Below, one piece after another: positions 12,001 to 46,293 of a DNA stretch of 64,000 nt. Source of the stretch: Bispira polyomma (lineage: Eukaryota); contig OZ287757.1 of assembly GCA_965649765.1 (NCBI GenBank), positions 9,300,001 through 9,364,000 of the forward strand, given 5' to 3'. Positions within the stretch are counted from its first letter, which is position 1. The number at the start of each line of letters is the position of its first letter. Below the pieces are notes generated by a model. The model searched no databases. It was not told where the DNA came from and saw nothing but the letters and a program-made list of their open reading frames with translations. Both the position numbers and the translations under genes were made by a program.

Positions 12001-15000
12001 TGATCTAAAATCCCATCAGTAACCCATGATTCTCTGATGAGATTTGAATTTGGTCTTGCGATTACCAGATCGATTATGTGATTGTGGATGTGGGTTGAAG
12101 TAGAGATAAACTGTGAGAACCCAAAAGTGTCGAGGAGGGTGTTGAAATCTTTTGTCGCAGTATTTTCTATGTCAAGCTTGATGTTGAAATCACCAAGGAT
12201 GATAGCTTCAAATGGGAGAAGGTTAAGGGTCTCAAGGAATTCGGAAAACTCTTGAGTAAAACTAGTTAAAGAAGGGATGGGTGGTCTGTAAAAGGAGGAA
12301 ACTAGGAATAAATGATAACCGTTTGAAATTTTGCATGAAATGTGTTCGAAAGACGAGTAGGACTGGTTTTTTAGAATATCACAGGGTATTTTTCACAAAA
12401 ATGCCAACTCCTCCCCCGCGTTTGTGCAACCTGGGGAACTGATGAAATTTGTAGCCCGGAGGAGTAATATCCGATAAAAAGGATGTCGTATCCCTACTGC
12501 TGAGCCACGTCTCGGAGACGGCAGCAACATCCAGGTCCTGGGCTATGACTAAGTCGATAGCCGCAGGTGCCTTATTCTGCAAGGAAAGGGCATTAAATGC
12601 ACCGATCTTAAGCAAGGATGCTGGGGGACCCGGATTAATGCTGACGTCCCCGCAGAGCGCAGTCAACAGAGGGATCCAGATACTGTTAACCCTGGGGTTT
12701 GGACGGCGGGTAATGTGAATTTGAAAAGCTAAAAAAGAAGTGTTCACCTTATCCAGGGAGGCTAGTAGAGATGGACCAAGTGCAAATTGGTCGAAAAAAG
12801 GTGTATTGGATGGAGAGCAGGCGCTCCATTTATGTAATCTGACACCGGCCAGAATAATACACGGGAGAAGTGTTAAACAGAACTTCCACATCTCAGATTT
12901 GAAGGAGCAGTAGCAAGAAAAAGAACCAAATATAAATCACAGCTAGACAGAATCAAAATGAAAGATGTAGTTTATTCTATGTAAAAACACTTGTAGTATA
13001 AAAATATGTGAACAAAGTCACATAGAATAAAAGGAAATGCGAAAATAGCAGAAGAAAAACGAATGCGTAAAACGGGAAATGTGGGCGATAATAACAGAAA
13101 GTTAAACAGCTAGGTGATAAATGGCAAGAAAAGCCCTATAAGACAGACAAAGTAAATATGATAAAAAGAACTGTAATTAATCAAAATATATAATGTTTTT
13201 CGCCATAACTCGAGGTACCAGTAAGAATTTTACAATTCGCGAAACGGAAATTTTAAAATGCTACTTAACTGGTGCACGCTAAACCACAATATGACTAAGT
13301 CGATATATCGTATTGATGATACACTAAACTCCAGCCTCAACTGTCTTGGGTTCGAAACTTAGTCCTGGCATGTTTGTGGGAAAGTTGACAAAGGACTTGC
13401 TGGAAAGTGTGTGGTTATTAGAGCAGAAAACCTTGACCAACTACCCTGCCTATTATTGTACACAAAACATGTTGAAAACCTTAAGTAAGTCAACATCATA
13501 CTATCATTGTATCACATCACAAATACAGACCATCAGAATATCATGCAATAATGTCAGCCTCTCGCGTTCAGATTCCTCAGAAGGGTCATCCATATAGTCA
13601 TCCAGTGCATTCTTGGCATCCAGCCAAGCATCTGAACAGAACATCTGGTATGCCTCCGATACATTCATGGGTCTGTTCTTGACGCATATATTTTCCAGGC
13701 TGCTCTCGTCGCGCGATACCTTCACTTCCATTTCTTTAGAGAGCCTGAAATGTCACAAAACATAATGACATGGTCAAGTTTTTACTTAAAAACATGTTTG
13801 ACTGAACTTATGCTAGACAAGCAATGCATCCTGTATTTAATATCAAATTCAGCTTTGTGTAACTTTTCACTGCCTTACGTTTTCAAAAGTGTTTGTTTTT
13901 TCATATTGATAATTATCACGGTATTCCCCTATTTCTAGTAATCATTTTCCATCAGTAACTAAGGCCAAGTGGTTAGATGCAATAATAGGCGTGTCATTGG
14001 CAGAGGAACATCAAAACAGGGCAGTTGGTCAAGGTTTTGTGTCTGCTTTACAATCACTGGTCTGTCACTTTGTGTGTTTTATCCTATTTGTTCCTTTATG
14101 TGAGAAGTTTTGTCAGGTACCTACAACAGGTCAGTGGCCTACATTGTTTCAGCAATGTTTTCTTTACTAAATCTGAACCTAAGCTGTTGAAAGCAACGTA
14201 AAACCCAACTAGTTCAAATTCACCAGTAACTGTGAATCCTCCTAACTGAAGACAGGCTACATGGTGGCACAATTTGTCCACCTTTCAAAGAATCTTTAGC
14301 CAATATGTATGTACCTGTAACCCCAGGTTTGTACAAAACAGGTCCTGTGTGTTCATTAGATGTGATAAGCAATGTAAATTAAGTATAAACAATTATTTCA
14401 ACATTTGCGACAAAGTGTAAACACCAGAGTTGAAATAGACAATCTTGACACAAAATCATTAGACAAGTTGTCACACTTCACCTCTCGCATTATTCAAGTT
14501 TGGCGATATTCACTAATCAAGAGCACCAGGCCTCAAAATCAAAGGTTAACCTCTCATTTGATAGGCAGTAGTAGTTTCACAGTTTCAAATGTATAACTCA
14601 TGTCTACTAGTATAACAAGCCTCTTGTTCAATATTATGAGCAGGGCCACTGTCTCGAAGTGGTTAGAAATGTCTGCTTCACTATCACTGGTTTCTCACTG
14701 ATGTGGGTTTCAATCCTGTTCGTTCTTTTATGTGGAAAGTTTGCGAGGAGGTGCCATAGATCGGTGGTTTACAAGTACTGGAGTCTTTCAGCAGTGAATG
14801 TGGTTGTCGTTGTATCACCTACACTGTTGGAAGTGACATAAAAACCCAACTAAACTAGTATTCAATACTTACAGCTCACTTAGCTACAGACCTAGACCTT
14901 TAAAAATTGCCAGGTTTTTGCATTTAAAATGTACCAAAGTTAAAGTTATGGGACAATTTGACACATACAGCAACAATTTCTAAGTTGAAGCGAAATAATC

Positions 15001-18000: not shown

Positions 18001-21000
18001 CAAGGAAAAAGGCATAACAGCCACAAAAACGAAAGTGCAACCATGAAAATAGCCAGCATGTGACTACAGGTGCTTTGTAATATTATACATCAATCCATAT
18101 ACAAGACACTGTCAGTTAGTTTTAAGTACATTGTTTTGCCTATGGTTTTCATCATATGGAAAAATGAGAATTCTACTATTTTTATAGTTATTACAACGGA
18201 AGAAAACATTAGGCTTGCAAATGTGTGGGAGTTACACTTGTATTTAGTCATTGATTTGTTTGACAAGTGGTTACTAAACACAATCATACTTTATTGTTGT
18301 GAAATGTATACAAACAACTTGAACTGAAATCCATATCTAAATTGTTATTACTTAGTGGGTCATCATTTTTTTTTAGTTAGATAACTGGAATTATTGGTCC
18401 CTATTGGCAAGTTTATAGTTAACAATACATCATTTCATTGGGAATTAATTTTACTATCCCCTGTAATTTTTTTTACCCAGAATATAGATAATACAACTCA
18501 ATTACATCAACAAAGACTGAGTGACCAAGAGGATCATAGTTTTGTTGTGTTAACATATATTTGACATAAACCGAGGCATTTCTTTATTACTGTGTCACCA
18601 AAGATGTAGTATAGGAAAAACATGTATTAGCATGTATTTAAGGGGGGAAATTGGAAAAAAGTACATACACTATGGGGGCAAATTGTGAAATATAAGGCTT
18701 TTGGATACTATATTTAGGTTTAGTTTGGAACCAATTTCAAATATACAACAGACACAAAAACACACCTACAAACTGAAACTAAAAAAAAAACTAGCGTAAA
18801 GATATCATTATAGTACACATTTTTTATTCATTTACTCGCATATATTAAAAATTATATTTTACACACTTGTCATTGAAATTTACACACCATTGAATTTATC
18901 CAAAAATAAAATCCCCACTTTCTGATAAAACAGCCCCTCCACCTCTTTTCACTTGTTAAATTATTACTTGAATTATTAGTTAACGATTATTTGAATGAAG
19001 TTGATGAGCTTTCCTGACCGGTTTCAGGTGTTCGCCTTTTACCAGCTACTGCTTTGTAAAATGACAACTTCTGATGGAAAGAATTCATATATACAACTGT
19101 TTAATACATGTACATTGTTTATAATACAAAATAAACTTCATGAAACTTTGTTATATAGCATAAGTATTTAAACAAGGAGGGTTACAGTATCTTTGCTGTT
19201 TGATTACTGTCCACCTGACTCGACCACCAATCTTTGGTCTCATGAAGTGACCCCCTTTGAAAAAAAAATTTATCATCCCTGAGGGTGATTATTAGGATAA
19301 ATACAGCATTTTTTAATTCATATTCTGTAACTTTACATGCTACAAACTAGTTGCCTGTCTTCTGACCACAACATGTTCAAAAGAAAATCTGGATCCTTTA
19401 TAAATGAAGTTCACCATTCAGCTGCTTCCTGACACATTCTCCAAGTTGGTCCAGCTCTGTGCTTCTCGAGATGTGCATGCTGTGGTCCTGACATCTGCGT
19501 TGATCAACTCCATTCAGGAGTGTCAATGCCTGGCAACTCGTTAGCCTCACAACAATCAGAAGGGTACTAAGTTCCGACTCTGCACCCTTTTGACCGATGT
19601 ATAGGTAAACATATGGACTAGGCCTCTTTGCATCTTTGCACCTGCTTGCATACCTCTCCAAAGCTGGCTTAAAGTCATTGTCCATGTCAAAGATCTTTGT
19701 TTTCTCAATCGAATCGTCGTGGCGCAGGAGCTTCAAGGTGGTCAGGGTGAACTCGGACGAATAATACAGGGATGTCTTGCACAGCCGGGTAGCATAGATG
19801 TTTCCACAGTGACACTCCAGTATGATGCCTCGGTGCATGTTCTTTAAGAGGTCATTGACACTAGGTAAGAGGTTATCGGGACAAAGCCCACTCGGCCACT
19901 GGGGCAGCTCCACAAGCTCACGATCCTTGGAGTCTGGGCCAAACAGAGCATCCTTGATAACGTCCGGGATTTCCTCTTCTATATTCCTCGGCACCACGGT
20001 GTATGTGATCCTACACCCCCGGGCTTGGGTCTTGATATGCTGGCTATTGATGATGTTATTTCTGTATATGATTTCCAAATACATTTCGGTGCCCGTTACG
20101 GAGATGCAGTCATGTGACATGACAGACTTGTCAAACGGCAGATGTGGATGACCTTCATCTGGTCTTATTGAATTAAGCTGCAGTGTTTTATAGGCCAATG
20201 GGTTGACAGTACTCGTACCCAACATTGCCATGTGGGGATGGTACCCAGAATCCACCTCTGCACTTTGAGAAACAGTAGAATATGGGCCAGCTGTACTTAT
20301 ATGGCAACTGGAAGACTGAGCAGGTATAAACGATGGACCTGCTGTACTGGCCGGGGTAATAAAGTTGTCAAACTCCATGTCTTCAATGCCACCATCTCTG
20401 TAATCAGCCCGTGCAGACTCCTGCGGCAGCTTGATGTTCCAGTTGTCACTGTTTGCTCCCTGGTAAAAGCACTTTCCCTCATGATCTACTACAGCTGTGA
20501 GCTGATTTTGTGGAGGCTGTCCGAAGGTGGGCCCACCTTTGTGGTGTTCCAATACTACACCAGGGCTGGTGTACTCATTCAGAAATGTTGGTACTGGGGC
20601 ATCTGATCCAAGAGCTGGTTGTACGGACTCCGGGTCGGGGGTTGAGGCAACCGGAGGTACAATTTTCTTTGGTTTTTGCCGCTTTAGAAACCTGTACACC
20701 TTGTAAGGATTTGGGTCACTCTTCCTGGTCATCTCTGGAATTTCCTGTATATCTGGGGCTTTATTCAGGGCGCAGCGTAAGTTGGTCTTCCACTTGGCAT
20801 AGGTGGGCGTGTCGACACCTTCACGGAATTTACCTGTATGGCATGCCCATTCCTTAAAGATCTGACTCTGTTCTGGCACCCAGTCCTGTTTCCCCCCATG
20901 TTTCCAGGGTACTTTAAAGATCTGTGCAGACCTATCCACCCATTGAAGGCCTGGGATGGTACCAGTATTTAACCTGCTTATCAACCAAGGTCTCAGCCTC

Positions 21001-22123
21001 TGTCTACTGTCTGAAGCTTCTTCTTCTGAAATATAAGAGAAACCCCATGTGTTCCAGTGTTCAAATTTAAAGCCTGTAAACTCTTGTCTTTGAACCAAAA
21101 CCTACCACTCAAAATACACTTGAAAAAGTTGATTTGGGACATAGTGGACCTCATACAGTGGCGTCTTTGTGTGCAAGCGGGGTGAAGATTATTAACAACT
21201 GATATTAATTGTAAATGATATAATTTGTGTAACATATTAAAGTAAAAGTAGATTTTGAGAAAGAAACAATGAACAAAATGTCTGCTTGTTTATCAAGCTG
21301 GAATTGTGTAATATATCACACAAATATTATCTTTTCTTTTCGTCAAACTTGATTAATCTTAAATCCTCCAATAACCACATACGACTTAGCCAGAAATAGA
21401 AAATTTTTGATTGTAGTCGAATCAGATTAAGAATAGATATTGAGTGTTCACTCTTAGCTCATGATTTGTTTTAAGAACATTTGCTCAGTTGAGACTTGAC
21501 CTGTGTTGGGATCTCACTAAAAGAAACTTTACTTGGACAAAAATTTGAAAAAAATCCTACTTCTTAACTTTAAACAACAAATTTATATTTTTTTAAGTCA
21601 TAATTAACGTTTTCGATGCGTAATGAAGTATTAAATGAAAAATAGTAAAGTGGTAAAATTTTATTCCGACTATAATCTTCACAGTATTTATAAAAATTTA
21701 AGTAAATTATTAATATGATTAACAGACAACTATTATCAGACATACCTGCATAACTGTGGCCAGTGATTGACATGTTGCTATTGCCCTGTACTTCCCAAGC
21801 CATTTCTGTGATTCTCTGGCTCAAATCGTCTCTAGTAGTTAAAATATATCCTTATATTCTTGTTCTCAGGATACCAAATTAATATTCTTCTTTAAAACTT
21901 TTTTTCGTCTTTCAAGAATCCTATCTGACTCGAAACAACTCTTTTAATGTAAAATGTGTAACTCCTAAAAACCTTCCAGTTATATACATCTACTGGTGAA
22001 AATAACTGTATTACCCCCTCCAACACTGGTGTAGTTTTAACAGTCAACGTATTTGACAGTACAATAGGTGTGAAACCGTGTTATAATTGACCTTCTTGTC
22101 ACTAGAACATATAAATACACTGA

Positions 22124-22156
<33 letters not shown>

Positions 22157-22932
22157 TCTCCACAGTTTTCCAGTTCAATGTCTGTTGTCGGAAAATACAA
22201 CGGGCGATATAGTAAATATTCAAACCAGTCCCATATAAGCTATCTTCCTCAATTAATTTACTTCCTTATAGTACATGTACATAGACCCACTGCTTGTTTT
22301 GTTATTTCAAACTGTGTTCTGAAACTGGTTTTAATATATCTGTCGTCCTTCGATTTTCCCAATACGGGGAAGTTTTGTTCCATCCGAAGATAGAATTCTG
22401 TCAGTTGTTTAATAACGGCACAGATGTATCATTTAGGTTTTCCTGGTATAAAGCGAAGATATGTTTACGCAGAGAATTCGCCGTCAGTATTTTCCCCGAA
22501 AACACTGGGAATTCCCCACTACGCGTATTTGTAGCTATAAATAGTAACACCTAAGCAGAGCCTCGTTTTCGCGGTTTAGGTACTCATACTACTGCGCCAT
22601 GAATATGTAAACAAAGAAGTACTTCGATAACGACACATGACTGAGCCGATCAATATACAAATAAATCTAAACCACAGTCGTCGTTTGAAAACCTTGGGAA
22701 TTTTATACTGAACATTTATTTCATGATATATTGGCATTCTTATTTGTACATATATAATATATGGTTTCATAAACAATTATGTCACACCCCACCCCCCACC
22801 CCCCACCTCGTTTATAATAATATGCTTTTATATGACTAGGGTAATCTAACGAAAAAAATTATACGGATCAATTTCGGTTTCACGTTCGCCGATATATTCT
22901 TCACATTACTAATAGTTTGTGGGAGAATAGAT

Positions 22933-22964
<32 letters not shown>

Positions 22965-25900
22965 CATGACAGTGCTCCCCATTAAGAAGTAATTATTTAT
23001 TGATTTATTGTGTGTATTGTTTGTTTTAATTTGTTTGGATTTTTTTCAATCTCAACATAGTACGGAAGCCTGTACAGGTCATACAAAAAATAAGAGATAT
23101 ATGTTTAAATTACAAAAAGGGCTCATATTGTAATTACCAGATATATCTCATAATCTAATCTAATCTAATCTAGTCATACTTTTATAGCGCTTAATCTTTG
23201 TACAACAAATTCTAAGGCGCAACAAACCCAAAACGTTAATCGCAAATCAAAAATAGTGGGCGGATGGAAGTCGTAACCAGGGAGACTACCGTAGATGGTT
23301 GCGACGGCTAAGGTGGAAAAGCCTGTTCAAAAAGATAGGCCTTCAGCTTACTCCTGAAAGAGGAGAAAGTTTGAGCTAGGCGAACATGATCAGGTAGGCT
23401 GTTCCAAATGAGGGGGCCATCATGAGCTAGGCAGTGATTGAACTGAACTTTGGATTTGTGGATGCGAGGGTCGAAAGTGGGAATGTTAAGGTATAATTTA
23501 TCAGGGTTACTGCGCCTAGTCCTGACTGAGCATGTATATTTGGATAGATGGGGGCTAAAATAAGTGGGTAATCCAGAATTTAGAAATTTATATATTATTG
23601 TTGCTGTTTTGAAAGCAACACGATATTTTATTGGGAGCCAGTGCAGTGACTTCAGTACAGGAGTAATGTGGGAAAATTTAGATGTTTTGGTCACAATACG
23701 TGCCAAGGAGTGTTGGATATTCTAAAGGCGTCTGAGATCACTACGAGATAAGGAACGGAACAGAGAGTTGCAGTAATCAAGCCTGCTGCTGACCAAAGCA
23801 TTGGCAACTGTGATTGCAGTGGATTTTGAAAGATAGCGTCGAATCCGCCTGAAATCACGCAGGTCAACAAAACATGATCTACACACCGATGTGACATAGT
23901 TCGAGAAGGAAAATTCAGAGTCGAACACCACACCCAGGTTTCGTACTTTGTCAGCTGGAAAAAACCTGCTGCCAAGAATGTCAAGTGGAAAACAGCTGGA
24001 CAATTTTTCCCGTTGCGACTTGGAGCCAAACAAAATAAACTCAGTCTTCTCAGGGTTCAGCTTGAGTTTATTTGCTGCCATCCAGTGTTGTACATCAACA
24101 AGGCAGTTCTGTAAGGAAGTGAAAGCTACCTGGGCAGAGTCAGGTGTAAGGTAGATGTACAGTTGGGTATCATCAGCATAGAAGTGAAAGTTTATGTTTT
24201 TGTATGCAGCAATAATCTTGCTGAGTGGAGTGGTGTACATGGAAAACAAAATGGGACCCAGGACGGAACCTTGGGGAACACCAAATTTTAACCATGTTGG
24301 GTCGGATAAGATATTGCCAATTTTGACTGATTGGAATCTATCAGATAAATATGCCGTGAACCACTTAAGCGCCATACCGTTGATACCGAACCAGGACGAT
24401 AGGCACTGTGATCAATAGTATCAAAGGCTGCTGACAGATCCAGCAGTACTAAGGCAGTAGGCATACCTTTGGATAAAGATGTATGAACATCATTTTTGAT
24501 GCAGAGAAGTGCAGTCTCAGTAGAATGACCACTTTTGTACGCTGACTGATACTTATTGGACAGATTGCTGACGTCAACATGTTGTTTGATCTGTAAGGCA
24601 ACCGCGCGTTCTACCAACTTAGAGATACAGCAAAGGCCTGAGGCAGGACGGTAATTTTTCAAGTCAGCCTTTGGAAGAGAAGGTTTTTTTTATTAAAGGA
24701 GTGACAATAGCCTTTTTAAAATAATCTGGAAAGACGCCATTTATCAAAGAGAGGTTGATATGTTTTGTGATTGAGGGCAATAAAATGTCAATACATTCTA
24801 TGACAAGGAATGTGGGCCACGGATCTAGCAAGCAAGATTTTACGGGTGATGCCAGTATAATTTTCCTGACTTCATCAACAGTTACTGTGGAGAAACAGTT
24901 GAAGACGGTTGGTGGAGCTGTTGGTAAAGGGGCATTTAGGGCAGCTAATGTAAAACCGTCACGGATTCTGGTAATTTTATCAGTGAAAAAAGTACTAAAA
25001 ATGTTTGCCAGTGATTTGCTATTGGAATTTTCGGGTAGTATAGTCTGTTTTTTGCGGTGGAGGGTGTTATTTAGTTTTTGCGAAAGTTTCTTCGGGTCAC
25101 CCTCGCTTTGAGATATCATGTTAGCATAGTAGGCACGTTTTGAGTCATTTATAGTGTTGTTGCACCGGGTGATCCATTCGCGTAGTCTAGATCTATTTGT
25201 AGCTGTTTTGTTTCGGCGCCATGTTCGTTCGGCTTGCCTGCGCAGCATCTTCATTTCACGATAATTACTGGTGATCCACTCAGGTGCTGTACTGTGTGTA
25301 TAGGTCAGTGGCATTATCAGCAGGAGACTTGGCGAAGGCCGTATCTGCCAACTCTCGTCTAAGGTCAGACATATTGATTTTTTGAAATTGCCGAAAAGTG
25401 ATTTGTGTGACATCAAAAGATGGTGGGGAGGGAGCATCAATTTCACAGGATATCGAAAAATGATCACTGATGCAACGAATGTTTTTTATGTTTTTGATAC
25501 CATTGAAATCAGTAGGAGTTAGCAAGCAATCTAGTGTATGCCCATGAATATGGGTAGGGAAGTTTATATGTTGGGTAAGATTGCAAGATTCCAGAACTGT
25601 GGAAAACCGATTACTATTTCCAGATGCGGTGTCTATGTGAATATTGAAATCCCCACAGAATACAGTAGGAGAGGGTAACGAGCAAGTAAACCCAACAAAA
25701 GACATGAATTCTTCGAAAAATGTAGTGAGATTTGAGCCAGGAGGCCGATAAACTGTTGCAAAATTTAAACACCGGTTTTTCCAGTGAGCAGAGACAAGGA
25801 TGAGCTCGAAAGATGTAAAACTTGGTGTAGCAACTAATCGACATTCATAGTTTTTCTTAATAAAAAATCCCACCCCCCCCCCACCCTGTTTACCTACACG

Positions 25901-28900
25901 AGGGGTATGGAATAGCTGAAAGTCAGCTGGGGTAAGTTCAGAGAGGAATGATGGAGTATCAGAACTCCTAATGTGTGTTTCTGTGATGCCGAAAATATCT
26001 ATGGAGGATGAGTCGATCAAATCGGCTATGACAGGGCTTTTATTCCGCAACGAGCGGACATTTCCAAATCCGAACTGAATTGGGCCAGGGTTACTCACAA
26101 TATCACCTGCCAGTAGGATAGTAATGAGTTTGAATGTTTTAGCCTTTGGTAGGTAATTGACTGGGCAGAATTTAGATCGAAAATAACAGTGTGTGTGGCG
26201 GGACCAGAAGTGTGGAACAGGATTGCAAGACAAATTAATGTCTTCCAGGTGGTATTGCATTGACAATGTATCAGATAATTTTAAGTCGTTGCGATAACAG
26301 AACGTAAGGAATGACAGGTACAAGATGGCAGCCCTAATGGCAAACATATTGAAAAAAAAAACAAAAAAACAATATATAGTGGTGATGGTCGATAATAGGG
26401 GATAGTTTCCAGTATAACCCCAAATTCAAAAAAAATAAAAAGTGTTGTACAAAGACTAAGCATAAAAATAGAAAAACAGTTTATATACTAACATGTGAGG
26501 ATGATTTTTAAGTAAAACAAGCCAAAACGTGGGTATAAAAAGACTAGATTAATTTAATTTTGACAATTACGAGCCGCCGCCGCCAAACCGGAAGTCTAAT
26601 TTCTCATAGTTACAAGATGTATCTCGTAATTTCAACATAGAGCTATCTCGTAATTTCAAGATAACCTTATGTTTAAATTAAGCGATAGCATTATGTTAAA
26701 ATTACAAGATTACCTTATGTTGAAATTATGAGATGTATCTTGTAATTACAACATATATCTTGTAATTACAGGATTAGCCATTCTTGTAATTTCAACATAA
26801 ATCTCGTAATTACGAGATAGCACTATCTTGTAATTACAAGATAGCATTATGTTGGAATTACAAGATAGTGTTATGTTGAAAATACGAGATAGCACTATCT
26901 TGCAATTACGAGATAATTTTTCTTGTATAACCTGTATAGGCCTCCGTAACATACAGACTTGCTAAGAAAGTAGTTTATGCTTATCCGCCATGCATGGAGT
27001 CATTATGATTCCTATATGTAAATTGGGCAAAGTGTTGACTGTGGAAATATAACTGTCAGCTCAAGTGTCTACTTTTAAAAAGTCATATGCGCTCTTATAA
27101 ACCTTCCTAATTTAACATACAGTAGATATTTGCATTGATATGTGAAGATGTTCCTGTAAATGTACAGGCGTATTAAAGCTTCAATAAGTTTATGTATAAC
27201 ATGACATATAGCAGTAATCCATTTATTCAATTATATGTAACTTTGATAATGAAAGGTAGTACATCTAATTTAGACCGCTTTGTTAATGTCATATGTCAAG
27301 ACTTCAAGAGATACAGTATCTTTGCCACCAATTTATTCAAACAGCTTTTGAATAATTGTTTTAAAAATATGTACAATGAAGAAGACTTATTAGTGAGGTC
27401 CTCAGTGGCCGAGTGGTTAGCAAGTTTGGCATCTAATCACAGGCTGTCACCTGTGTGTGGGTTCGCCTCCCACAAGTGACAAATGCTGTGGGCCTGGCTG
27501 TTGATCGAGGACGTAAAACCCTAAACATTGACTTTAGTTGTTGGGAACATAAAAGATTGAATGTTTATAAGAGATACCAGCTGTACCAATTCTAATGCAA
27601 GGGAAATCAATCATCTAATTATTTATATGTGTACTGTGTAAAGCAGATGATGTTGTTCTTTGTTGTTGTTTTTTTTTTTGTCTTCTTAATATAATGGTGT
27701 TGTATCAGTTTGGTGCCATGAGCACGATATACATGAATACATAAGTAAATTATGCTTGAGACAAAAGGACTTGAGGAAAGTCTAATCTCAACATGGGGTT
27801 TCTGTACTGGTCCTTTTGTATTTGTATTGTACAAGGACATTATGGCTTTTATCTGACCAGAGTCACGTTTACACAATCACTACGAAACCCCCCATTGACA
27901 TATAATATTTATTATACCTCGGCGGCGAATCCAGTGATCCTATTGGTTAAAATGCAATCACGTGATATAACATATTTCCCGATATGGCCCGGCAGTTGGG
28001 GGTCATATCACTGCAGCGGGCCATATCACTTGCAAAGTTTAACAAGCACCATGTGCGGTTATTTGTGTTTTCATTAAAGATTTATAGTTTAATACACAAT
28101 TAAACAACTGTAAATACATTATATTGAATTTACTGTTAAACGTCTTCTTCCACCGTGGTTAAATTGTTTATATACACATCACTGGAGTTAGGGGCGCTAC
28201 TACACCTAGCAGCTTCACGAAAATAGATGTCGGGACTAAAATTTCTGCACCCGGCCAATATGGCTTGAGGGCCGTCAGGCCCAAAAGCCATATTGTGCTG
28301 ACCAAGGGTGCATATATTCTAGTATGGCCCTCACAAACAGCTTATATTCTCTTTATTATACCGAAGCATTTTTGATTTTTAATATAGTTTTAATAAGGAA
28401 TTTTAGTCCCGATGTCTATTTTCCTCTAAATATGGTGCTGTGTGTCAGGATGCTATTTTTCACACTGACATGATATAATAAAAATTTATCAAGATTTATG
28501 ACTAAATGAGGGTGGGAAAAATCATAATATTGTCGTATAGACTTTTTTCACACAGATCATGCATAATTATATTTTCATGTCCAACATTTACAAGAATGTG
28601 TGGCCAACAACAACATTTTTTTTAAATTGACTTTTGTGTTCTTTTTAACGTTTCTCCTAAGTGTTAGTCTTATTTTCTGTTGTTAGTGAGCGTTTCCGGT
28701 ACTAGAAGCGAAAAAAATTTTTCTCAAATAATTGTATAGAAGCATAAAAATTGAAAATTGCCTGTTATACATTGGCTGGTCACCTCACCAAGTTGCCTGC
28801 ATGGAAACGCTCACTTATCCAACACTGTTTTGTGTAATTTGTATGTCATGCAGAACGATTGCATGGCATCTCTGTCCCTATTATTGGGCCTCTCCACGAT

Positions 28901-31039
28901 CAGTCTTGATAGTGGAACAGGGTCGAATCATGATCAAGTGGGAGCTTTACTTTATTAATATTACCAAGCGAGTTGTTATCTGACACAGCCTGATATTGAT
29001 CTTGTTCGGCCCAGCCTTGATGGAAATACATAACACCTTATGGATTGGTTGGAAGCAATTGACCCAATTGAACTGAGGGGTGTCAGTTTTATATTATCTG
29101 GCGATTATAACACACAGCCTGATATCGATACTTTGCTGGAAATAATATGCAAGATTGAATTAGTTGGATTCGTTGAAAGCAATCACCCAGGCCAAACTAA
29201 GGGGTGTCAGTCAGTCACACTGTAGGCTGATGTCTTTTTTTAAAGACAATTCTTGTTTATTCTTAAGTGAAACAATTCTATAACAAAACTGAGTGGGTGT
29301 TTGTTGCATGCTATACCCACATACTATGTATGTGGTCATTTCGAAACTAGATTTCAACAGATAAATATAGAAAGTGATTTATCACAATGTATGTTATTTG
29401 AATGCATGGTGATGTTTGTTATAGCCATTATTTTACTACATTAGTTCATATGACTAGTAATAATTTACTAATGTATTATAATGGTAACGTTATTAACCAT
29501 CAGTTATTATGTGATGGCATTTTAAAAGATTTTATCCTTGCGTCTTTACTTAAACTTGCACATCTACAAGGAGGCATTTATATTTTAAATATATTACCTC
29601 AAACCTAGAATCATATTTCATACAACTTATACTAAAGTCCTTACTTTATGGATGCTCATTGTTACTTTTAGCTTTTGACCTTTACCTTAACTGCATCACA
29701 CAAGTAAGGGGGGGGGGGCACTCGGTGACATAGTGGTTAATACAAATGCCTCCCACCTCTGAGGTCGTGTTTCGAATCTTGTTGGCTACAGCTTTATGTT
29801 GGAAATTTGGCAGTTAGTTGAAAGTTGGCCGATGCCAGATCATTTAGACTGCAGAATATTGACCAACTAGTATGCACTGCTTTCCCCCACCAGTAAAACT
29901 AACCTGTTGTGATACGACTTATATACAATGTGCTGAAAGCAACATTAAACCCCAAATCCATCAATCAATTAAGCGTTCTAGCCAGATACTGTTGTAATAT
30001 ACCTAACAAGTCCTCAATTTATTTTTATTGAAATAGAGTATGAATGAGTACATTGTGTGATGTCCTGTCAAAACCATCGCCTGGCATGGCCAGTTACACA
30101 CGGCAAGGAAATTTCAGAGGTGGTCAGACCAGGTATTAAATACAGTTGATATACGATTACTGCAGGTACCATGTGATATGTATATTGTCTAGAACCACCT
30201 TTCCATACCACCAATGAGAGACTTTAGGTGTGACCAGTAATATCTAAACTAGTGCAAGTTTACAGCCTCACTAAAAAAGTAACTTCTATCTGTGTGGGAA
30301 GAGCTTCCATCCCTTTTTGGTGACATCCTCGTGGAATAAACTTACACAATTGTATTGTAAATGAGTAGGCAATATGGTGTGGTCATACGTTGCCTAAGGA
30401 TGTGATGCCACCAACAAACCTAAGCAGGAGTGTAACCAGGGACCCTCCGATCACCGGACAAACTCCACCCGCCACCCCCCTACTTGGAGTTGAAATGGGG
30501 ACCCTTCTAGTCGACAGACCATCTCCCTAACCACTAGGCCACAGGAAACTCTGTGTATCAATAAAATAAAATAACAGACAACAAGCTATCCTATACATAA
30601 AACAGTTGCTGTTATATGGAGAAAAACTGTAACCCACTAACCTGAGTGACAGGTCTTTGCAATCCGCCTGTGATTTCTGTAGTTTTTGCCCAAGATCCAA
30701 GTTCTCCTGGCGAAGTTCTTCCTTTTCCTTTTCAAGCTTTTCCAAATCCAGTTTACTTTTCTTCTGGCTAGAGCTGTCTTCCACGGAAGAAAGGCTACGT
30801 TTTTTGCCACGCAAATCATCTTCCGAAGCCGATGACAAAGAGGACAAAGCCCCGCCCACTACCACTACTTTCTCTACGTCACGATCACCGTCGCACTTCT
30901 GGCTTGAGGCATCATACCACGTTTCGTCGGCTCCGTCACTGATAACTTGCTGTATCTGTGCCGATTCCCTGCTTATTATTTCGGCAGACCTTTTGATTTT
31001 ATTTTTAATATCCTGAACTGAACGCTGTTGATCATCCAT
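3072..31039 (-). CDS. Mieap/SPATA18-like (mitochondria-eating protein C-terminal domain) coiled-coil protein, paralogue A, ~437 aa; coding exons 31039-30642, 13744-13531, 8879-8781, 6856-6725, 4347-4024, 3218-3072
   Basis: All junctions GT-AG and phase compatible (2,0,0,0,0), 1314-nt uninterrupted frame. Motifs R|LSKEM..LENICVKNRPMNVSEAYQMFCSDAWLDA and ACSIVWKMVLQRPQM..YVHPVLYHGDKVMAKGRI resemble the MIEAP domain family; exon structure mirrors paralogue B. The join of exon 30642 to 13744 is inferred. Confidence 0.75.
8380..8613 (-). mobile_element. Second copy of the L2-tail SINE-like element
   Basis: Near-identical to 9930-10173 in reverse; flanked by gtggtat TSD (8373-8379/8614-8620); same 5' start GGCACCC. 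Confidence 0.8.
9337..13250 (-). mobile_element. Near full-length L2-clade non-LTR retrotransposon (APE + RT), disrupted; in intron 2 of gene A
   Basis: APE motifs (SETWL, GGGVGIF), RT motifs ([37 protein letters not shown]), C-terminal SRLDYCNSL..LHWLP..AYPP*, (AAT)n tail at ~9337-9355; in-frame TAG at 10556-10558, frameshifts, and an insertion at 9846-10173. 5' boundary approximate. Confidence 0.9.
9846..10173 (+). mobile_element. Short non-autonomous retroelement (SINE-like) with L2-derived 3' tail, inserted antisense in the L2; 5' head tandemly duplicated
   Basis: tacat TSD (9841-9845/10174-10178), (ATT)n tail, last ~110 bp homologous to the host L2 3' UTR (9340-9456); second copy at 8380-8613. 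Confidence 0.8.
14645..15615 (+). repeat. Two decayed SINE copies (14645-14855, 15385-15615); relatives at ~29715-29970, 44270-44480 and 51165-51385 (-)
   Basis: Shared tRNA-like head, atgtgg(g)aaa core and ctgttg..gtgac.taaaaccc 3' end. Confidence 0.55.
19398..21803 (-). CDS. IRF: Interferon regulatory factor (IAD1-type, IRF4/8-supergroup-like), ~561 aa; coding exons 21803-21746 and 21025-19398
   Basis: Trp-repeat DBD (RLRPWL..GLQWVD..FKVPWKH..IFKEWA..AKWKTNLRCALNK) and C-terminal IAD1/SMAD-FHA-like domain (GCRI..LLKNMHRGI..IYATRLC..KIFD). The TTG start in the ORF track is intronic: strong acceptor tttctcttatatttcag ends at 21026; the upstream exon MAWEVQGNSNMSITGHSYA-G|gtatg (acceptor at 21832) is phase-1 compatible. 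Confidence 0.95.
22491..22517. promoter_or_regulatory. Composite GAS (STAT) + NF-kB site upstream of IRF gene
   Basis: TTTCCCCGAAA at 22491-22501 (TTCN3GAA, same sequence as the mammalian IRF1 GAS core) followed 5 bp later by palindromic GGGAATTCCC(C) at 22507-22517, ~0.7 kb upstream of the IRF ATG exon in a CpG-richer patch. Confidence 0.65.
22870..22888. promoter_or_regulatory. ISRE-like element upstream of IRF gene
   Basis: AATTTCGGTTTCACGTTCG contains TTTCNNTTTC (GAAACCGAAA on the - strand) plus a partial third half-site. Confidence 0.5.
23061..26948. mobile_element. MITE with ~30-bp TIRs (TACGG..CCGTA) and internal palindromic minisatellite, split by the L2 insertion; IS3EU-like termini
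   Basis: tacggaagcctgtacaggtcatacaa (23061) is the inverted repeat of ttgtataacctgtataggcctccgta (to 26948); near-perfect 6-bp TSD acatag/acatac; repeated atctcgtaattacgagat-type units at 23130-23150 and 26597-26915. Confidence 0.7.
23150..26596 (-). mobile_element. Full-length L2-clade LINE (single ORF: leader, 2A-like motif, APE, RT), frameshifted
   Basis: ORF pieces 26347-25280, 25467-24664, 24662-24288, 24375-23722, 23706-23308 carry ITETH, YRPPG, GDFNIH, LLDLSAAFDTIDH, GVPQGSVLGP, YADDTQ, LHWLP, AFPP*; (GATTA)n tail at ~23150-23172. Confidence 0.92.
27398..27535 (+). mobile_element. Older tRNA-derived SINE (related copy at 47405-47550, - strand)
   Basis: A box TGGCCGAGTGG, B-box-like GGTTCGCCTCC, 3' gctgttga..ggacgtaaaacccta. 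Confidence 0.65.
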
Positions 31040-31273
31040 TGTTTTCGTTTGTTTAGCAACGTGCAAAAGTAGGGTTTATTTAAAATATGTGATATCTCAA
31101 ATTTGAACGAATACCTTATATATTATACTCCTTATTTACTTTTTTGATACAGCTTTAAGTACCAAAGCTGTCTAATGCTTTGGTATTGATACACCAGTGT
31201 ATATAGATACCCATGTGTACTTGTATTTCATCGATGCAGTCGACGTAGTATTGAACGGCGGCAAAATTAACAC

Positions 31274-31292
31274 GAAATCGAAAGTGAAAGTA
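31274..31292. promoter_or_regulatory. ISRE/IRF-E upstream of Mieap-like gene A
   Basis: GAAATCGAAAGTGAAAGTA = three GAAA half-sites at 6-bp spacing, ~235 bp upstream of the ATG at 31039. Confidence 0.65.
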
Positions 31293-31489
31293 CTCTATAC
31301 ATAGTACTTCAAAGGAACAAAGGGGCAAGTATATATCACTGGTTGTTATTCTTTTACTTTAGGAGTGGAGTCCATTTTTGAATAACCTAAAAACCACTGT
31401 TCTGATGTGTAACGAAAGAGATAACGGTTATTAATATAAGATATATTTATAAAAAAATTATTTTTCCAATACTTCCTCCTAAGTTTTTT

Positions 31490-38226: not shown

Positions 38227-41200
38227 TCAGTCATTCCTCAGAAGAACCTTGCCTGGGGTCTTCAGTTTATCCTCCTGCCACAGTGCCGGGTAGACATAAC
38301 AGATGACCTTGGCCCTTTCAGAGGTCGGGTTGATACTTGTCCAGTACAAATCCTGGATCTTTTCTCCTTTCCATTCCTCCCCAATCCCGTCTGTCGTAAA
38401 CCTCATGGGCGGTCTCTGGATCACCATGTTCCAAGCCAGACGGCACGCGACAGAGACGTACGACTTAAAAATGTCGGCTTCCTTGACCAAGGGCCAGCGA
38501 CTGGTGATGTGATCTTGCGAGTCCGCATGGGACGGTGATGAACATGTGCTATCTAGTTGATCAAATATACTCTGAAAATTTTTATAAAAATCCATATTGT
38601 TTATTGTACTGTTTTGACATAGTCTATGGGGGGCCGCGGTGGCCTAGTGGTTAGCAAGCATTGCGCTTCACAATCACTGGTCTGGTGCAGTGTTCAATAT
38701 AGCTAAAATCACTACAATCTATCTAACTTTTATAGCGCTTTTTCTGTGCTAGCACATTTTAAGACGCATAAGACAGAATATCATTTTGACAATTTCATAT
38801 AGCCATTGAACGTGAGGGGTCATGACCTTGGAGACACCGGAAAAAGGTAAGAAGGCTAAGGTGGAAAAGCCTTGCTGAATAGATAGGTTTTGAGCTATTT
38901 CCTGAACCAGGCAAGTGAAGAGGCAGTGTGAATATCAAATGGCAGATCATTCCACAGCTTAGAAGCATCATATGAGAAACCAAAGATGCTCAGAATGTTT
39001 TTCGGTCCCTGGGTATATTTGTTCATACATAGAATTACTAGTACCAGCACATTGCCAAATAGGTGTAATGAAGAAAAGTATAACAATAATGTAGGGGTAT
39101 GACATGGATGGACATCGTACCTTCACAATAAATGTAATGTTGCCCAATAGTCAACAAACATTGTTGCCAAAGGGTAAAAATTAATATTTATAATCAACGA
39201 ATTTGCTGGCTTATTCCGTAGAAATTTTAATCACTTGATTGCTTAGGGCACTCATTAGAGCACATTTATTCACCAAGCTACAACATTAACAGTACCCAAA
39301 AGTGAAAAATGTATTATTGCTCAGCACATGGGCAATGATTCCATCAAATATCAAGTGACTTGGTCCCGCAGGTTATTGTTATGCAGTTTTCTGTGTTGTT
39401 AAATGTAAAGCTACAGTAAAAAGCACACAAATGTTGACTAATGGGCATACAAATTAATATCATTTGGTACTGTTATGCATCATTCACTAACCTGCTCTAG
39501 CTTCACCATTGATATATTATCACTTGACCTCTTCAGGTAGTTGCTCAACTCTGTGTGTAGATTCTGGGGCAGGGATTTAACCCTCATAATGTCACCAGCA
39601 GCATTCTCTGTTACCTTTACAATAAAGGATGCATAATTTATGGTATTAGTTAAGTTTGGGTTCATTGTGTCTTGTGTCACTTTACGACAGGCAGGTCACT
39701 GTTTACGGAAATCAAAGCAGGCCCCATGTACTATATCTACATTCAGTTTTCCCATATACATGCCAGGGCCGAAATTCCAATCCACAACTGCGGAAGTTGA
39801 AGCTGAAAGTGTTACCCCTATAGCTCACAAATACTTACTACAGTAGAACCCCCATTATCCAAACATGGAAGGGTCTTCAAGGAGAACAGCCATTTTTGTG
39901 CAAAACAATAAATGAAAACAAAAATTTGGTTTGTGGAAATTAGTTCTAATATTTTGAAATGTAGTATGTTGAAAGCAATTTTAAACCCAATAGAAACTAA
40001 ACTAAACCTATAACAAAATTTGACTTTAATTCCATAAAATATCAATCAAAGTATTGTCAGCCACGTTAAAACCGGATCACGTGGAAAATCGCAACTAACC
40101 TGATACATCTGGTCAGTAAATTCAACATATGGTATAACTTACATCTCCCAGGGGATTAATAATACCATCATAAAGACCTTTAAGTGCCTTCTCCGCTTCA
40201 TCATAGGAAATCTGGAAAACATGAATATGCATAACCTAGCGGAAAGCTGTACATAATGAATGTTAAAAATCGACTTTTCATCTAAACCTAAAACGAAACT
40301 GCCAGAACAACTATATTTCCTTGTACAAATAGTGAGTGTAGGCTTAGTGGTTAAGTGTTTTTTCAGGGGTCCTTGATGTGGGAAAATTCTTGATGCAGGT
40401 CATTGATTTTTTATAGTACTAAATAGTTTCATACATAATTCTAGCTTCATCTACCAATACATGACCTTTGCCATGTAACTTTTAAGATACTGAATATATG
40501 ACTGGAAAAGTAGGTAAATTGAAACATATTTTACTGCTCTAGAATAGTGTAACTAGCAAATAAGATACAAAACTCAAATAATCAAAAGAATAATTTCGAG
40601 CAAGCAACGTTTTCCTTTTGATATAGTAAATGTAACATTGATGTGGTTATGGAGGTATAATGTAAAAAAACAAGGAATATTCCTTTAGCATGTTCTACAC
40701 CTAATTTTGAATTCCTATATCTATGTTGTCTTTGTAAATACATGTATTGTTTGGACAGTTAAATTTTGTTCCAATGACAGAAGATTTAAAATCGAAGAGA
40801 AATTTTAGTATAACAGAACAGGAAAAATTAACAATTTAGTAGAGTAGAAAATGTAAAGTAAGGGTATAACACAAGGTTGTATAACAGAGACTTCACAGTA
40901 TAAGTGGACTATATTTGATGTATTAAACTCCTCCTCCCTAATTATTTGATGTATTAAACTCCTCCTTCCTAATTATTTGATGTATTAAACTCCTCCTCCC
41001 TAATTATTTGATGTATTAAACTCCTCCTCCCTAATTATTTGATGTATTAAACTCCTCCTCCCGAATTATATTGACTCCTCCTCCTTAATTATATTGACCG
41101 ATTTCAGGCAGAGTAAGAAATATCTAAATAGTGACTGATATTAGATAATGATATCATAATGTAGTTAGTAATGTAATGTAAAATTCATTTTCACATACTG

Positions 41201-44200
41201 TTCAGCATCCACACATTATATGGATATATTACTTGTTTTATGTACATTTCCATTTTTTTTGCATTTTTCAAACATTTTTTTACAACCCAATATATATGAA
41301 CATCACTTTCATTAATAATAGTCCCTCTTTAGAGCCTTGAGCTAGATGTGAACACGCAATCACCTGCTTGTGATGACCCTTGCCTGTCTCTTTCGGAGAA
41401 CCAGCTTTGGAGGATGTGTATCAATAGAGCACTGTGTAAATGCTTCGCTAAAACTAATAATAAGCCTGGCTTACCAAGATGATGTCACACAAAAGTCTGA
41501 GGTTATCAGCTTCCCCCTCACTTAACCGGTCCACGGTTTCCTTGGCTTCTTGCCATTGGTCAGAACACAGCTGCAGGTAGTCATCCTTAATCCTCATTGG
41601 CCGGTTCTTGATGTTGACGTTCTCAATGGTACTCTCACGTGCGGATACCTTGGCATCCATCTCATGGGAAAGTCTGTAATGATAGGATATGATATTATAG
41701 AGTTTTGACATGCATAATCAATGCCAGGCATCTTCTAAAGAGCAACATCATTCACAGAGTTTTTAAAATTGTAATCCGTTTCCAGCGCAAATTCGTGATC
41801 CAACGTGCTGCAACAGAGAAGGCATAGGATCCAATGGGTTTACTGGTTCTGATATAAGAGACTAAAACATTGTAACACTGACACCATAAGTTTTCCATAT
41901 GTGTTACCTTAAGTAAGTTACAATAGACACTCTATTATCCAAACTTTTGTTATCTGAATATACTACTTCTGGAATACACTTTCATACGAATTTTGACCCT
42001 CTTAAAACATGGTCTCTTAAAACATAACCTTACCTCATTGTCAAGTCCTTCACTTGTTCATCCAGCCGTCCACTTCTCCGTTCTTCACTTTCGAGAGCAC
42101 CCTCCGACTGCTTCAATAGTTGCTCTAGTTGAGACTTCTCCATCACGGCGTGTTCAAGAAGGTCTTGCAGCCGGCTTATTTTACCTTCTATTCCTTTTCG
42201 GTTGTCTGCCAGTTCCACTGCTTTTAGAGGCTTCCCTAAGGTGGTCGACATTTCCTTCATACGATCTTCTAAGCTGTCATCTAATTTGAGCATGGCATTC
42301 TTTTGTTCTTTCATTTCTTTCTCCATCTTATTGTTCTCCAACTGTAGCCTTTCCATATCTTGCTGTAAGCGCTCAATATGTCTGCCCTTCTCTGTATTCT
42401 CTTTCTTCAGTGCTTCTACTTTTTCACCCAGATCCTCCAAGTCTTTGACATGTTTGTCTCCTTTCTGCTCTTCTTCCTCCTGACTTCCTTGCATGTTTTC
42501 TTCTAACGACATCCCACCTACAGTATGTAACAATATATTGATAACAATTAATATATACAAATATATATACATAATTCAAACAATATGTTGTAATAGGAAA
42601 TTGGAAAATGAAATGTCTAGGTGTACACCATTTTTACAGTAAAATCTAATGTCACTGATTTATTGGTATTCTTTATTATTATAACAACATGAACCAGATT
42701 ATTTGTCAGCCAACGGAATAAGAAAATGAAGCAATGGATCCACTCAATCAAATGCAGGAATGAAATGCAATTCTAAGCATTAATGTTGTTACAAAATTCA
42801 AGGAAAATATCAATCAATATAAATATATGGTTTTCAGATCGCACCCGAAGAAGTTGCGGTTTATAACTTTCTGGAACAAAATGTCACTTCTGGATTGGTG
42901 GTGCACCAACTTCCACTAAAAAGGTCACGATCAGTGGTTCATATAATACAGCATTATAGCCTGGGAAAATACATGTATCATTGATTGTTTCAATAGTTTC
43001 ATTTTGATATCAAAGCAGCAAAGTAACGATTAATATTGAAATACCGTCCCAGTACCGCCCTAAGACCGTCCTATTTGTTGGTGCCATTTTCACACCCAAA
43101 TAATAATAAACTATAAAGTACTTAAGTTATATCTAACATTTGTGTGGATATATTGTTTACAGTGCTATTGTAAAAACATAAATGGATCCAACTTGCGATA
43201 TTTTAAATTGATTTTAAATTTTTCTTTAGAGAGCTTTGTAAATGTATTTTTTGACAAATTTTTAATCTTAAGCTGAAAAACAAAAACATGAAATTACTAA
43301 TGTATATGTAATATATTAATGTTCAGTATGCACAGAATGTTCATAGGAATACAGTCACATAACTCACATTTCAAGTTTAATGTTGCTGGTCTTGATATAA
43401 CCCCTGGACGCTGTTTCAAATTGGCCACAGTGTCAACATCGCCCGATTAAAAGCCGATTTTACTTACCTCTAATTGCAAGTGTCTCCTGTTCTGCACGGA
43501 ACTCCTCCGTGATAGAGTCAACTTTCAAATCACTCCCTGTTGTTTTGTGTGTCACCGGACTATTTCTGCCACCCTTTGACTCTGTGTCCACAGGTTCTTC
43601 ATCTTTACTGTTGTTAGAATACAAGTTTGTTTTATTTAAAAATAAGTTTACATTACAATTACATGTATTTATTTCATACGTACGTAGATAATGCAAATAC
43701 ATACAAACTAAAATAAGCATTTGAATCTGTCAAGCAAATTAGCCAGAAAACACATGAAACACAAATATAAGACCAAATATTGTCACAAATAGGCTTGACA
43801 GTCTGATAGCTAAAAAAACCAAAGGTTTTTCATATGGCATTGTATATTATAGACACATACAGAATACAACAACATCACACTTTACATGTATAATGTTAAC
43901 AGAAAATAAGAAACATTATATAAACCACAGAAACAACCTCTTTTAGTAGCTATCGGTCCATTGTAGCCAATCTATTGTTTTATTAATAATTATTAAGAAC
44001 AAAATAACAAAAAACAATATCCTTATAAGATTAAATGATATCCAATAGTTTAATACAGACATCTTGAAAAAAATATGAGGAGTGACATTGTTTGGAATTT
44101 TATTTGATATTTCTTCATCTTCTATATACAATTTTCCTAAATAATACCAGTGAGCTCAATATAAGCAATCTTTTGATTGTTATAAAAAGGTCATACCGAG

Positions 44201-44649
44201 TAAAATTTCACATAATGTAAAACTATGTATACTTGTATACTTTGTGTATGTTCTTGTTAATTGAGACACTTGGCACTGCAATAATCACTCATAATCACAG
44301 GCCTCTCACCAATGTGGGTTTCGATACCAGTTACTTCGTTCATGTTGGAAAAATTTTGTCAGGTACTTGCCATAGGATGGTGCTTTACGGTGGCTTCAGT
44401 CCTGGTTTACGCCACCATTAAATCTGGCAATCTTGATATAACCTAAGCTGTTGAACGTGACGTGAAACCCAACTAAATTCAAGTTATTACTTACACGAAT
44501 TGCTGCTCCTTCTTTTGCTCATTTGCTGAATCCATCCCTGTTTGGGCATGTTCCTCATTTGCATCTGGTTTTCCCATGCCTGGCAGTTTCTGAGGTGTGG
44601 TCCTGTTATTAATGGCTGCTCTTTGAGTAAAAGACCCTGGCTCTGCCAT
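38227..44649 (-). CDS. Mieap/SPATA18-like coiled-coil protein, paralogue B, ~504 aa; coding exons 44649-44495, 43607-43468, 42517-42034, 41673-41475, 40211-40143, 39614-39492, 38571-38227
   Basis: GT-AG junctions with phases 2,1,2,0,0,0 give a 1515-nt open frame; long heptad-rich coiled coil, then R|LSHEM..IENVNIKNRPMRIKDDYLQLCSDQWQEA and ACRLAWNMVIQRPPM..YVYPALWQEDKLKTPGKV, homologous to paralogue A. Confidence 0.8.
38628..38683 (+). mobile_element. 5' fragment of the same SINE
   Basis: ggccgcggtggcctagtggttagcaagcattgcgcttcacaatcactggtct is almost identical to the 63421 head. Confidence 0.8.
38710..39090 (-). mobile_element. Degenerate L2 3' fragment in last intron of gene B
   Basis: FSYDASKLWNDLP..FRK..KAFPP-type end and L2-like 3' UTR. 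Confidence 0.65.
40913..41098. repeat. Minisatellite, 31-bp unit x5 plus degenerate copies
   Basis: Unit atttgatgtattaaactcctcctccctaatt read directly. Confidence 0.9.
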
Positions 44650-46092: not shown

Positions 46093-46110
46093 AAATCGAA
46101 AGTGAAAGTA
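46093..46110. promoter_or_regulatory. ISRE/IRF-E upstream of Mieap-like gene B
   Basis: AAATCGAAAGTGAAAGTA, identical over 18 bp to 31275-31292; ~1.3 kb upstream of the ATG-containing exon (acceptor at 44785), where a non-coding first exon is expected. Confidence 0.6.
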
Positions 46111-46293
46111 GTGATATTATATTTTAGTGCTCAAATAAATTCCCTTTTGTGTTTCTTCTTCGCCAATCAAAGGAAATAGCGTATTTTTTAACAATCAGTT
46201 TCAGTATCTCGGTCAAATTTATCAGCAATACATTTTAGTGAAATATAAATTCAAATTAGTAAAAATTGACAAACGCGAGTTTTTTCCCCACAA

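Follow-up and report, generated by a model that had tools for sequence, protein, structure and literature searches.

An IRF gene, likely an old retrocopy, nested in the first intron of an ISRE-bearing MIEAP-family gene of Bispira polyomma, and a possible in-frame join to the host's first exon

In a 64,000-nucleotide (nt) stretch of the Bispira polyomma genome (contig OZ287757.1; C10:9300001-9364000 within a 1.04-Gb genome; hereafter the window, to which unprefixed positions refer), an interferon regulatory factor gene (IRF) is nested on the same strand within intron 1 of a MIEAP-family gene, here called gene A. The IRF is likely an old retrocopy whose parent is a multi-exon IRF on C4. The explanation we favour, and hold to be probably correct, is that host and IRF are two co-induced units: the IRF would be read from its own promoter, the host would splice across the IRF and be read through its poly(A) signals, and an in-frame chimera of the two would be minor. 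All gene parts discussed here are on the minus strand, the central ones being the following.

31039-30642, minus strand, 398 nt: gene A coding exon 1, with a Ser-rich part, a bipartite nuclear localization signal (NLS) pattern at residues 79-96, a coiled-coil-like end and a phase-2 donor (CAG/gttagt)
21746..21831, minus strand: IRF 5' exon, with a weak candidate acceptor at 21831, an ATG at 21803 and a strong phase-1 donor at 21746
19398..21025, minus strand, 1628 nt: large IRF exon, with the DNA-binding domain, linker, IAD and stop, and without the eight alignable parental introns
13531..13744, minus strand: gene A exon 2, the conserved exon of the MIEAP family, with a phase-2 acceptor
8781..8879, minus strand, 99 nt: predicted gene A exon 3, from the open 393-residue model
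4024..4347, minus strand: gene A exon 4, with the MIEAP domain (Pfam PF16026, E 4.4e-7, above cut-off; Atlas 0.95)
3072..3218, minus strand: predicted last coding exon of gene A

Structure of the nested locus

Exon 1 and the pieces 13744-13531, 8879-8781, 4347-4024 and 3218-3072 form an open protein of 393 amino acids (aa) with a MIEAP domain, which scores 30.5 bits against a curated PF16026 cut-off of 27. Exon 1 has one copy in the genome. Given that a profile scan of the window finds only two copies of exon 2, at 13.7 and 41.7 kb, and that none of nine relaxed candidates between the IRF and exon 2 (19397-13800) resembles a coiled-coil first exon, the IRF lies within intron 1 of gene A; the same scan offers exon 1 no alternative family exon 2 as partner within the window. 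An earlier reading of this DNA, made from its letters alone (the sequence-only reading), had described an NLS in exon 1, and residues 79-96 indeed carry the bipartite pattern; such patterns are common by chance.

It seems to us very improbable that exon 1 is the IRF's alone, or that the nesting is an assembly artefact, with the downstream MIEAP exons using some other first exon. Such a view could draw on the size of the intron, which at 16.9 kb is the longest of 23 assigned junctions (the others span 0.27-9.6 kb), and on the fact that no single contig piece, among those listed, crosses the whole stretch. However, exon 1 ends with the motif and phase of the family, the search for a rival coiled-coil exon came back empty, and three read runs agree on the sequence of exon 1 and the IRF, both of which show single-copy depth and unchanged contigs. 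These runs behave as DNA (introns are covered and contigs run through the IRF intron) and splicing is not visible in them; the best 15 of 220 joints include neither 30642 to 21831 nor 30642 to 13744, which is uninformative on splicing. An apparent dip in depth at 30816-31400 was gone once the reads were re-mapped. Rfam gave no match within 13-32 kb of the window.

The host belongs to a large family. The exon-2 protein has at least 54 matches in the genome, and an AG stands at the homologous phase-2 site in 51 of the 53 copies examined. A coiled-coil exon with a D/E-L-x-x-R ending, the motif in which exon 1 of gene A also ends, could be assigned for 23 copies; the ending was itself required by the exon filter, and a copy was dropped if the 10-20 kb retrieved contained no such exon. 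That exon 1 ends in phase 2, as the sequence-only reading had stated, is confirmed by its donor at 30642. Because its normal partner, exon 2, takes this same junction, phase 2 is a trait of the MIEAP family and says little about the IRF. A tandem paralog in the window shares the junction:

38227..44648, minus strand: gene B, a MIEAP-family paralog whose phase-2 junction runs from 42033 to 41673, with partly resolved 5' exons

Within the family gene A is a divergent member, and a far better MIEAP match, the best in the genome (C5:42802984-42805739, E 2.5e-24), is likely, by its sequence, the true SPATA18/Mieap ortholog. Excerpts of PMC8382680 describe an expansion of the MIEAP domain family in bivalves (OG24) and link the family to mitochondrial stress, and an excerpt of PMC11848433 reports a MIEAP homolog in an oyster nidovirus genome. 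The family described here is like that of bivalves in its PF16026 domain and its large lineage expansion, but differs in the divergence of gene A and in the ISRE-like elements (interferon-stimulated response elements, ISREs) that several members carry.

Origin of the IRF gene

By domain criteria the nested gene is classed as an IAD-bearing IRF (IRF4/8-like), both domains being present: its predicted protein, 561 aa from its own ATG at 21803, has an N-terminal DNA-binding domain (PF00605, E 2.6e-38; five Trp in the translation) and a C-terminal IAD (PF10401, E 1.2e-16). It resembles molluscan IRF8-like and IRF4-like proteins (Liolophura, scallops, Haliotis, Patella) in combining the two domains and in its 45-65% identity over the DNA-binding region. 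It differs from them in its overall identity (about 33% to the Liolophura protein), in having its coding sequence in one large exon and in its position in our tree, where both it and its putative parent fall outside the mollusc/Owenia group.

This parent lies at C4:65.114-65.145 Mb; an 11-exon model of it gives no fewer than 10 coding introns, and all eight of those that lie in alignable sequence map inside the single 1628-nt exon of the copy on C10. One parental intron, of phase 0 and within the DNA-binding domain, is common to the parent and an IRF paralog at C4:56.44 Mb and is thus ancestral. Of 331 domain residues, 221 are common to parent and copy; the proportion of synonymous differences (pS) is 0.81, which is saturated, and the nonsynonymous divergence (dN) is 0.24. 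After so much synonymous change, neither a poly(A) remnant nor a target-site duplication would be expected to persist. A single-open-reading-frame (single-ORF) relative from a 2.36-Mb contig, P0001, is 73% identical to the window's IRF (363/498), and this identity is concentrated in the domains (78/85 and 214/243, against 71/169 in the linker). The two group together in the tree with support of 99/99 and the pair is sister to the parent (95/97), on long branches and with a midpoint root. The saturated pS, the dN and the conserved domains of P0001 together indicate that the copy is old and under selection; as in a retrogene, the 561-aa ORF is intact and evolves under purifying selection. We therefore consider the IRF likely, from sequence comparison, to be an old retrocopy of the gene on C4, the retroposition itself being our inference.

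The only coding intron of the copy (21746 to 21025) was likely gained after copying, since it is of phase 1 and lies eight codons before the domain, whereas the parent's intron in that region is of phase 2 and at another position. New 5' exons are the usual route to such structures, accounting for 75-93% of multi-exon retrogenes in the excerpt of PMC4772013. Descent of the 5' exon from the parent received no significant support (604 to 1521 of 5000 protein shuffles and 1824 of 2000 DNA shuffles scored as high), and the IRF 5' region occurs only once in the genome. P0001 begins within the DNA-binding domain and is silent on any N-terminal extension. Protein searches with exon 1 (0/36 candidates) and with exon 4 at longer lengths (0/66) were negative, and searches with the IRF protein returned no longer IRF from this clade.

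Other loci of the IRF family have features of their own. Three further IAD-bearing IRFs, at C1:21602746-21612027 and C1:23685352-23688360, are mostly single ORFs of 515-651 aa, two of them forming a divergent pair; their form suggests repeated retroposition or intron loss in the family. Adjoining one paralog, at C1:23695453-23700000, are ORFs that by eye resemble a tyrosine-recombinase retroelement. The introns of the C4 parent (C4:65135992-65137480, also near 65114780 and 65138830) contain tandem degenerate copies of an acceptor plus exon start, many of them in series ahead of the first IAD exon.

Promoter-like elements and poly(A) signals

Both genes have candidate regulatory elements, as follows.

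31274..31289, minus strand: triple ISRE-like element, which precedes the ATG of gene A by about 235 nt, with a TATA-like box at 31122
22872..22881, minus strand: ISRE-like site upstream of the IRF, from a pattern scan
22507..22517, no strand: near-palindromic NF-kB consensus upstream of the IRF, from a pattern scan
22092..22270, minus strand: predicted non-coding first exon of the IRF itself, with a TATA-like site at 22270 and a candidate donor at 22092 (4.4 bits)
18290..18828, minus strand: candidate IRF poly(A) signals (AATAAA at 18828, 18588 and 18295), inside the host intron and within 1.1 kb of the stop

The predicted first exon of the IRF has no in-frame ATG, and neither the gene A nor the gene B promoter shows similarity to that of the IRF. 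The ISRE core of gene A recurs in an element of gene B (46098-46107), with 24 of 500 shuffles scoring as high. Across the genome the triple-ISRE pattern has 62 matches, against 38 for a control; nine lie within 20 kb upstream of family exon 2 (of 54 copies), where 0.06 were expected, an excess inflated by the pattern having been derived from these loci. The canonical triple motif has all 10 of its matches in family loci, which make up about 75% of the 844 kb scanned (p about 0.06). Examples of ISRE-bearing family loci are C10:3414719, 19664112, 36305654, 36333253, 36816695, 39000715 and 39312671, and C3:100575871. The ISRE-bearing promoter that the sequence-only reading had ascribed to gene A is thus borne out as an ISRE-like element but not as a pointer to IRF capture: since gene B and other members carry it too, it looks like a family trait. 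By the same motif matches, the MIEAP-like family may constitute a large set of IRF targets.

The join from host exon 1 to the IRF

The sequence-only reading proposed that exon 1 could be spliced onto the IRF, and the geometry holds. The join from 30642 to 21831 is in frame, runs on through 21746 to 21025 and reaches the IRF stop at 19398, for a protein of 703 aa (it had been put at about 700 aa); 21831 is preceded by an AG, and phase 2 stays open over the 28 nt from there to the IRF ATG. The chance of a phase match was given as one in three, which stands, and as 59% of the 9-codon windows in this intron (7769/13216) are stop-free, the frame fit alone is weak evidence.

The use of 21831 as an acceptor fared less well. 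Our two acceptor models were trained on 65 acceptors inferred from gene models of this genome. In the position matrix 21831 scores -5.4 bits, under all 65 real sites (leave-one-out minimum -4.2), and 369 of the 892 AGs of the same intron do at least as well; the acceptors of the large IRF exon (21025) and of exon 2 (13744), themselves in the training set, score a strong 8.1 and 8.0 bits. The second model, which is smoothed and includes an AG-exclusion term, places 4 of the 65 real sites as low as 21831 and 214 of 2361 decoys as high, and ranks it first among the 12 AGs scored between 21805 and 21964. Under these models 21831 appears a weak but plausible acceptor, its strength depending on the model chosen.

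When nine acceptors were joined to exon 1 in silico, only 21831 led to the end of the IRF and the other eight stopped early. These joins bear on an alternative that we judge improbable, in which the IRF would profit from the host promoter without any fusion: exon 1 would be spliced onto an out-of-frame acceptor (21815, 21920, 21025 and others), giving a regulatory upstream ORF or a dead-end product. The early stops would fit this, as would the poly(A) signals past the IRF, which would terminate host transcripts, and the matrix model, in which 21815 and 21920 outscore 21831. In the smoothed model, however, those acceptors fall below 21831, and translation of the IRF would be blocked by an upstream ORF of 132 codons whose start context is strong.

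A junction-like peptide and the case for a functional chimera

The frame that opens at 21831 reads DDLSQRITEM, which comes near the family junction pattern (D-L-[ST]-x-R, then L-[SA]-x-E-M). We noticed this match before testing it, so its statistics are post hoc, and it weakens in longer windows. Farther upstream, in a different frame, there is a weaker match of coiled-coil-like character (per-position p about 8e-6, family-wise about 0.09). Profiles of the family junction built from DNA missed the IRF 5' exon, and none of the 53 family copies examined is an intron-less or spliced copy that could have served as its source. If the peptide does reflect homology, the 5' exon would derive from such a copy. 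Whether it is true homology to the family junction is, in our view, close to a toss-up.

This peptide sustains a second alternative, which we think unlikely: a functional chimeric retrogene of the TRIMCyp or jingwei type. Here the host's ISRE promoter would regularly make a 703-aa, NLS-bearing coiled-coil IRF through the join to 21831; the coiled coil would pre-oligomerise the IRF or tether it to family proteins, the NLS would hold it in the nucleus, and the whole would act as a feed-forward amplifier. The in-frame join speaks for it, together with the first rank of 21831 among the 12 neighbouring AGs in the smoothed model, the weaker upstream match, and the start of the junction-like peptide exactly at the acceptor and in the IRF frame, a frame that is closed by stops farther upstream; precedents are available in excerpts of PMC5470649 and PMC4772013. 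On the other hand, 21831 is below every real site in the matrix model, the peptide match was tested only after it was seen and is missed by DNA profiles, and phase 2 is usual in the family. Judged by eye, the heptads of exon 1 also fall out of register at the join, and the 86-nt IRF 5' exon, if kept in the host mRNA, would shift the host frame and truncate its protein at 168 aa. The fuller proposition, that an IRF retrocopy sits in its own ISRE-driven target, took a family coding piece as its first exon and now offers a splice choice between a Mieap-like effector and a nuclear coiled-coil IRF, we likewise regard as doubtful.

Several points nevertheless weigh against two separate units with a minor chimera. 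With regard to origin, the linker exons of the C4 parent show frame breaks in the 11-exon model, and DNA duplication followed by intron loss may be an alternative to retroposition. The promoter motifs of the IRF are consensus matches only. As for splicing, two more AGs open in phase 2, 21813 and 21819, lie outside the nine that were joined, with far lower scores. Lastly, DDLSQRITEM has the top score of 901,611 stop-free positions under an 11-column profile with one gap; over 64 windows and 186 positions of the IRF 5' region this amounts to p of at most 3e-7 per position and, as a rough family-wise figure, about 0.004 or less overall. Since untranslated sequence beside saturated synonymous sites is not expected to keep such a match, its retention would point to translation, late recruitment or constraint from a splicing signal.

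Of the chimera as first proposed, then, the geometry stands and intronic retrocopies provide precedent; its other grounds weaken, in that the phase is explained by exon 2, the ISRE is family-wide and the IRF has promoter-like elements of its own.

A proposed mechanism and its relatives

Two co-induced units, the explanation we favour, would have come about as follows. The mRNA of the multi-exon C4 parent would have been reverse-transcribed and inserted into intron 1 of gene A, where it later acquired a new 5' exon and the phase-1 intron; the exon might stem from decayed sequence of the host family, a Met of which turned into the start codon. The IRF would now be transcribed mainly from its own kB/ISRE promoter to give the 561-aa protein, while the host would splice over it to give the 393-aa protein. 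Both units are presumably induced by IRF/NF-kB signalling, which would give the IRF feedback control over its own gene, its host and other family members with ISREs; we infer promoters, induction and feedback alike from motif matches. Some splices from exon 1 to the IRF would arise in host transcripts terminated at the IRF poly(A) signals; most of the tested acceptors yield short products, and 21831 would give the in-frame form as a minor by-product.

The locus thus appears, by analogy, to work like an intronic retrogene. In TRIM5-cyclophilin A (TRIMCyp) and in Drosophila jingwei, as set out in the excerpt of PMC5470649, a retrocopy landed in or beside a host gene and host 5' exons were spliced onto it. 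The likeness lies in a same-strand retrocopy within a host intron. There, however, the fusion is demonstrated and functional, whereas here it is only compatible in frame; the retrocopy here also encodes an entire transcription factor, has a start and promoter-like elements of its own and lies in a host whose downstream exons are intact. TRIM5 supplies a coiled coil and is interferon-induced. Host upstream exons are used by 13 of 230 expressed retrocopies in human and by 14 of 243 in mouse, denominators that count every expressed retrocopy and not just intronic sense ones, and mouse Taf9 within Ak6 is an intronic retrocopy with host-exon transcripts (both from the excerpt of PMC4772013). Taf9 is likewise on the host strand in a host intron; the present case differs in being from an invertebrate, in being known from sequence alone and in having as host a predicted target of the nested factor. 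Among the listings of our literature search there was no IRF retrogene nested in a MIEAP-like gene and no chimeric retrogene formed by a master immune regulator and its own target.

Even without a fusion, a conserved IRF retrogene in an ISRE-bearing host, together with ISRE enrichment over a 54-copy MIEAP-like family, would offer a concrete and testable invertebrate IRF circuit, and gives a hint of an immune, and not solely mitochondrial, role for the Mieap-like expansion. Should the fusion prove real, a master immune regulator and the gene it targets would together have formed a chimeric retrogene. On the fuller proposition above, this would be a TRIMCyp-like transcription-factor fusion with a feed-forward loop over more than 50 candidate antiviral genes in an invertebrate. 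In an unrelated protein, P0102 (803 aa), about 320 aa that look coiled-coil-like by eye precede an IRF domain and IAD, an architecture that could reflect either a true fusion or an artefact of the gene model.

Other elements in the window

Between exon 1 and the IRF, intron 1 of gene A also contains a mobile element:

23308..26425, minus strand: frameshifted long interspersed nuclear element (LINE) with endonuclease and reverse transcriptase, Pfam-checked at 23.7-26.4 kb

It is very high-copy in the DNA runs and is flanked on its 5' side by a palindromic 24-bp tandem array (26600-26915); other LINE copies or fragments occur at 9485-12936, 46263-46946, 56905-57648 and 31539-31949. Between genes B and A lies a broken DDE_Tnp_4 (PIF/Harbinger-like) transposase on the plus strand (32970-33895). 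Farther along, at 51953-53247 on the plus strand, overlapping ORFs encode a protein kinase, with ISRE-like motifs at 52629, 52790 and 53773.

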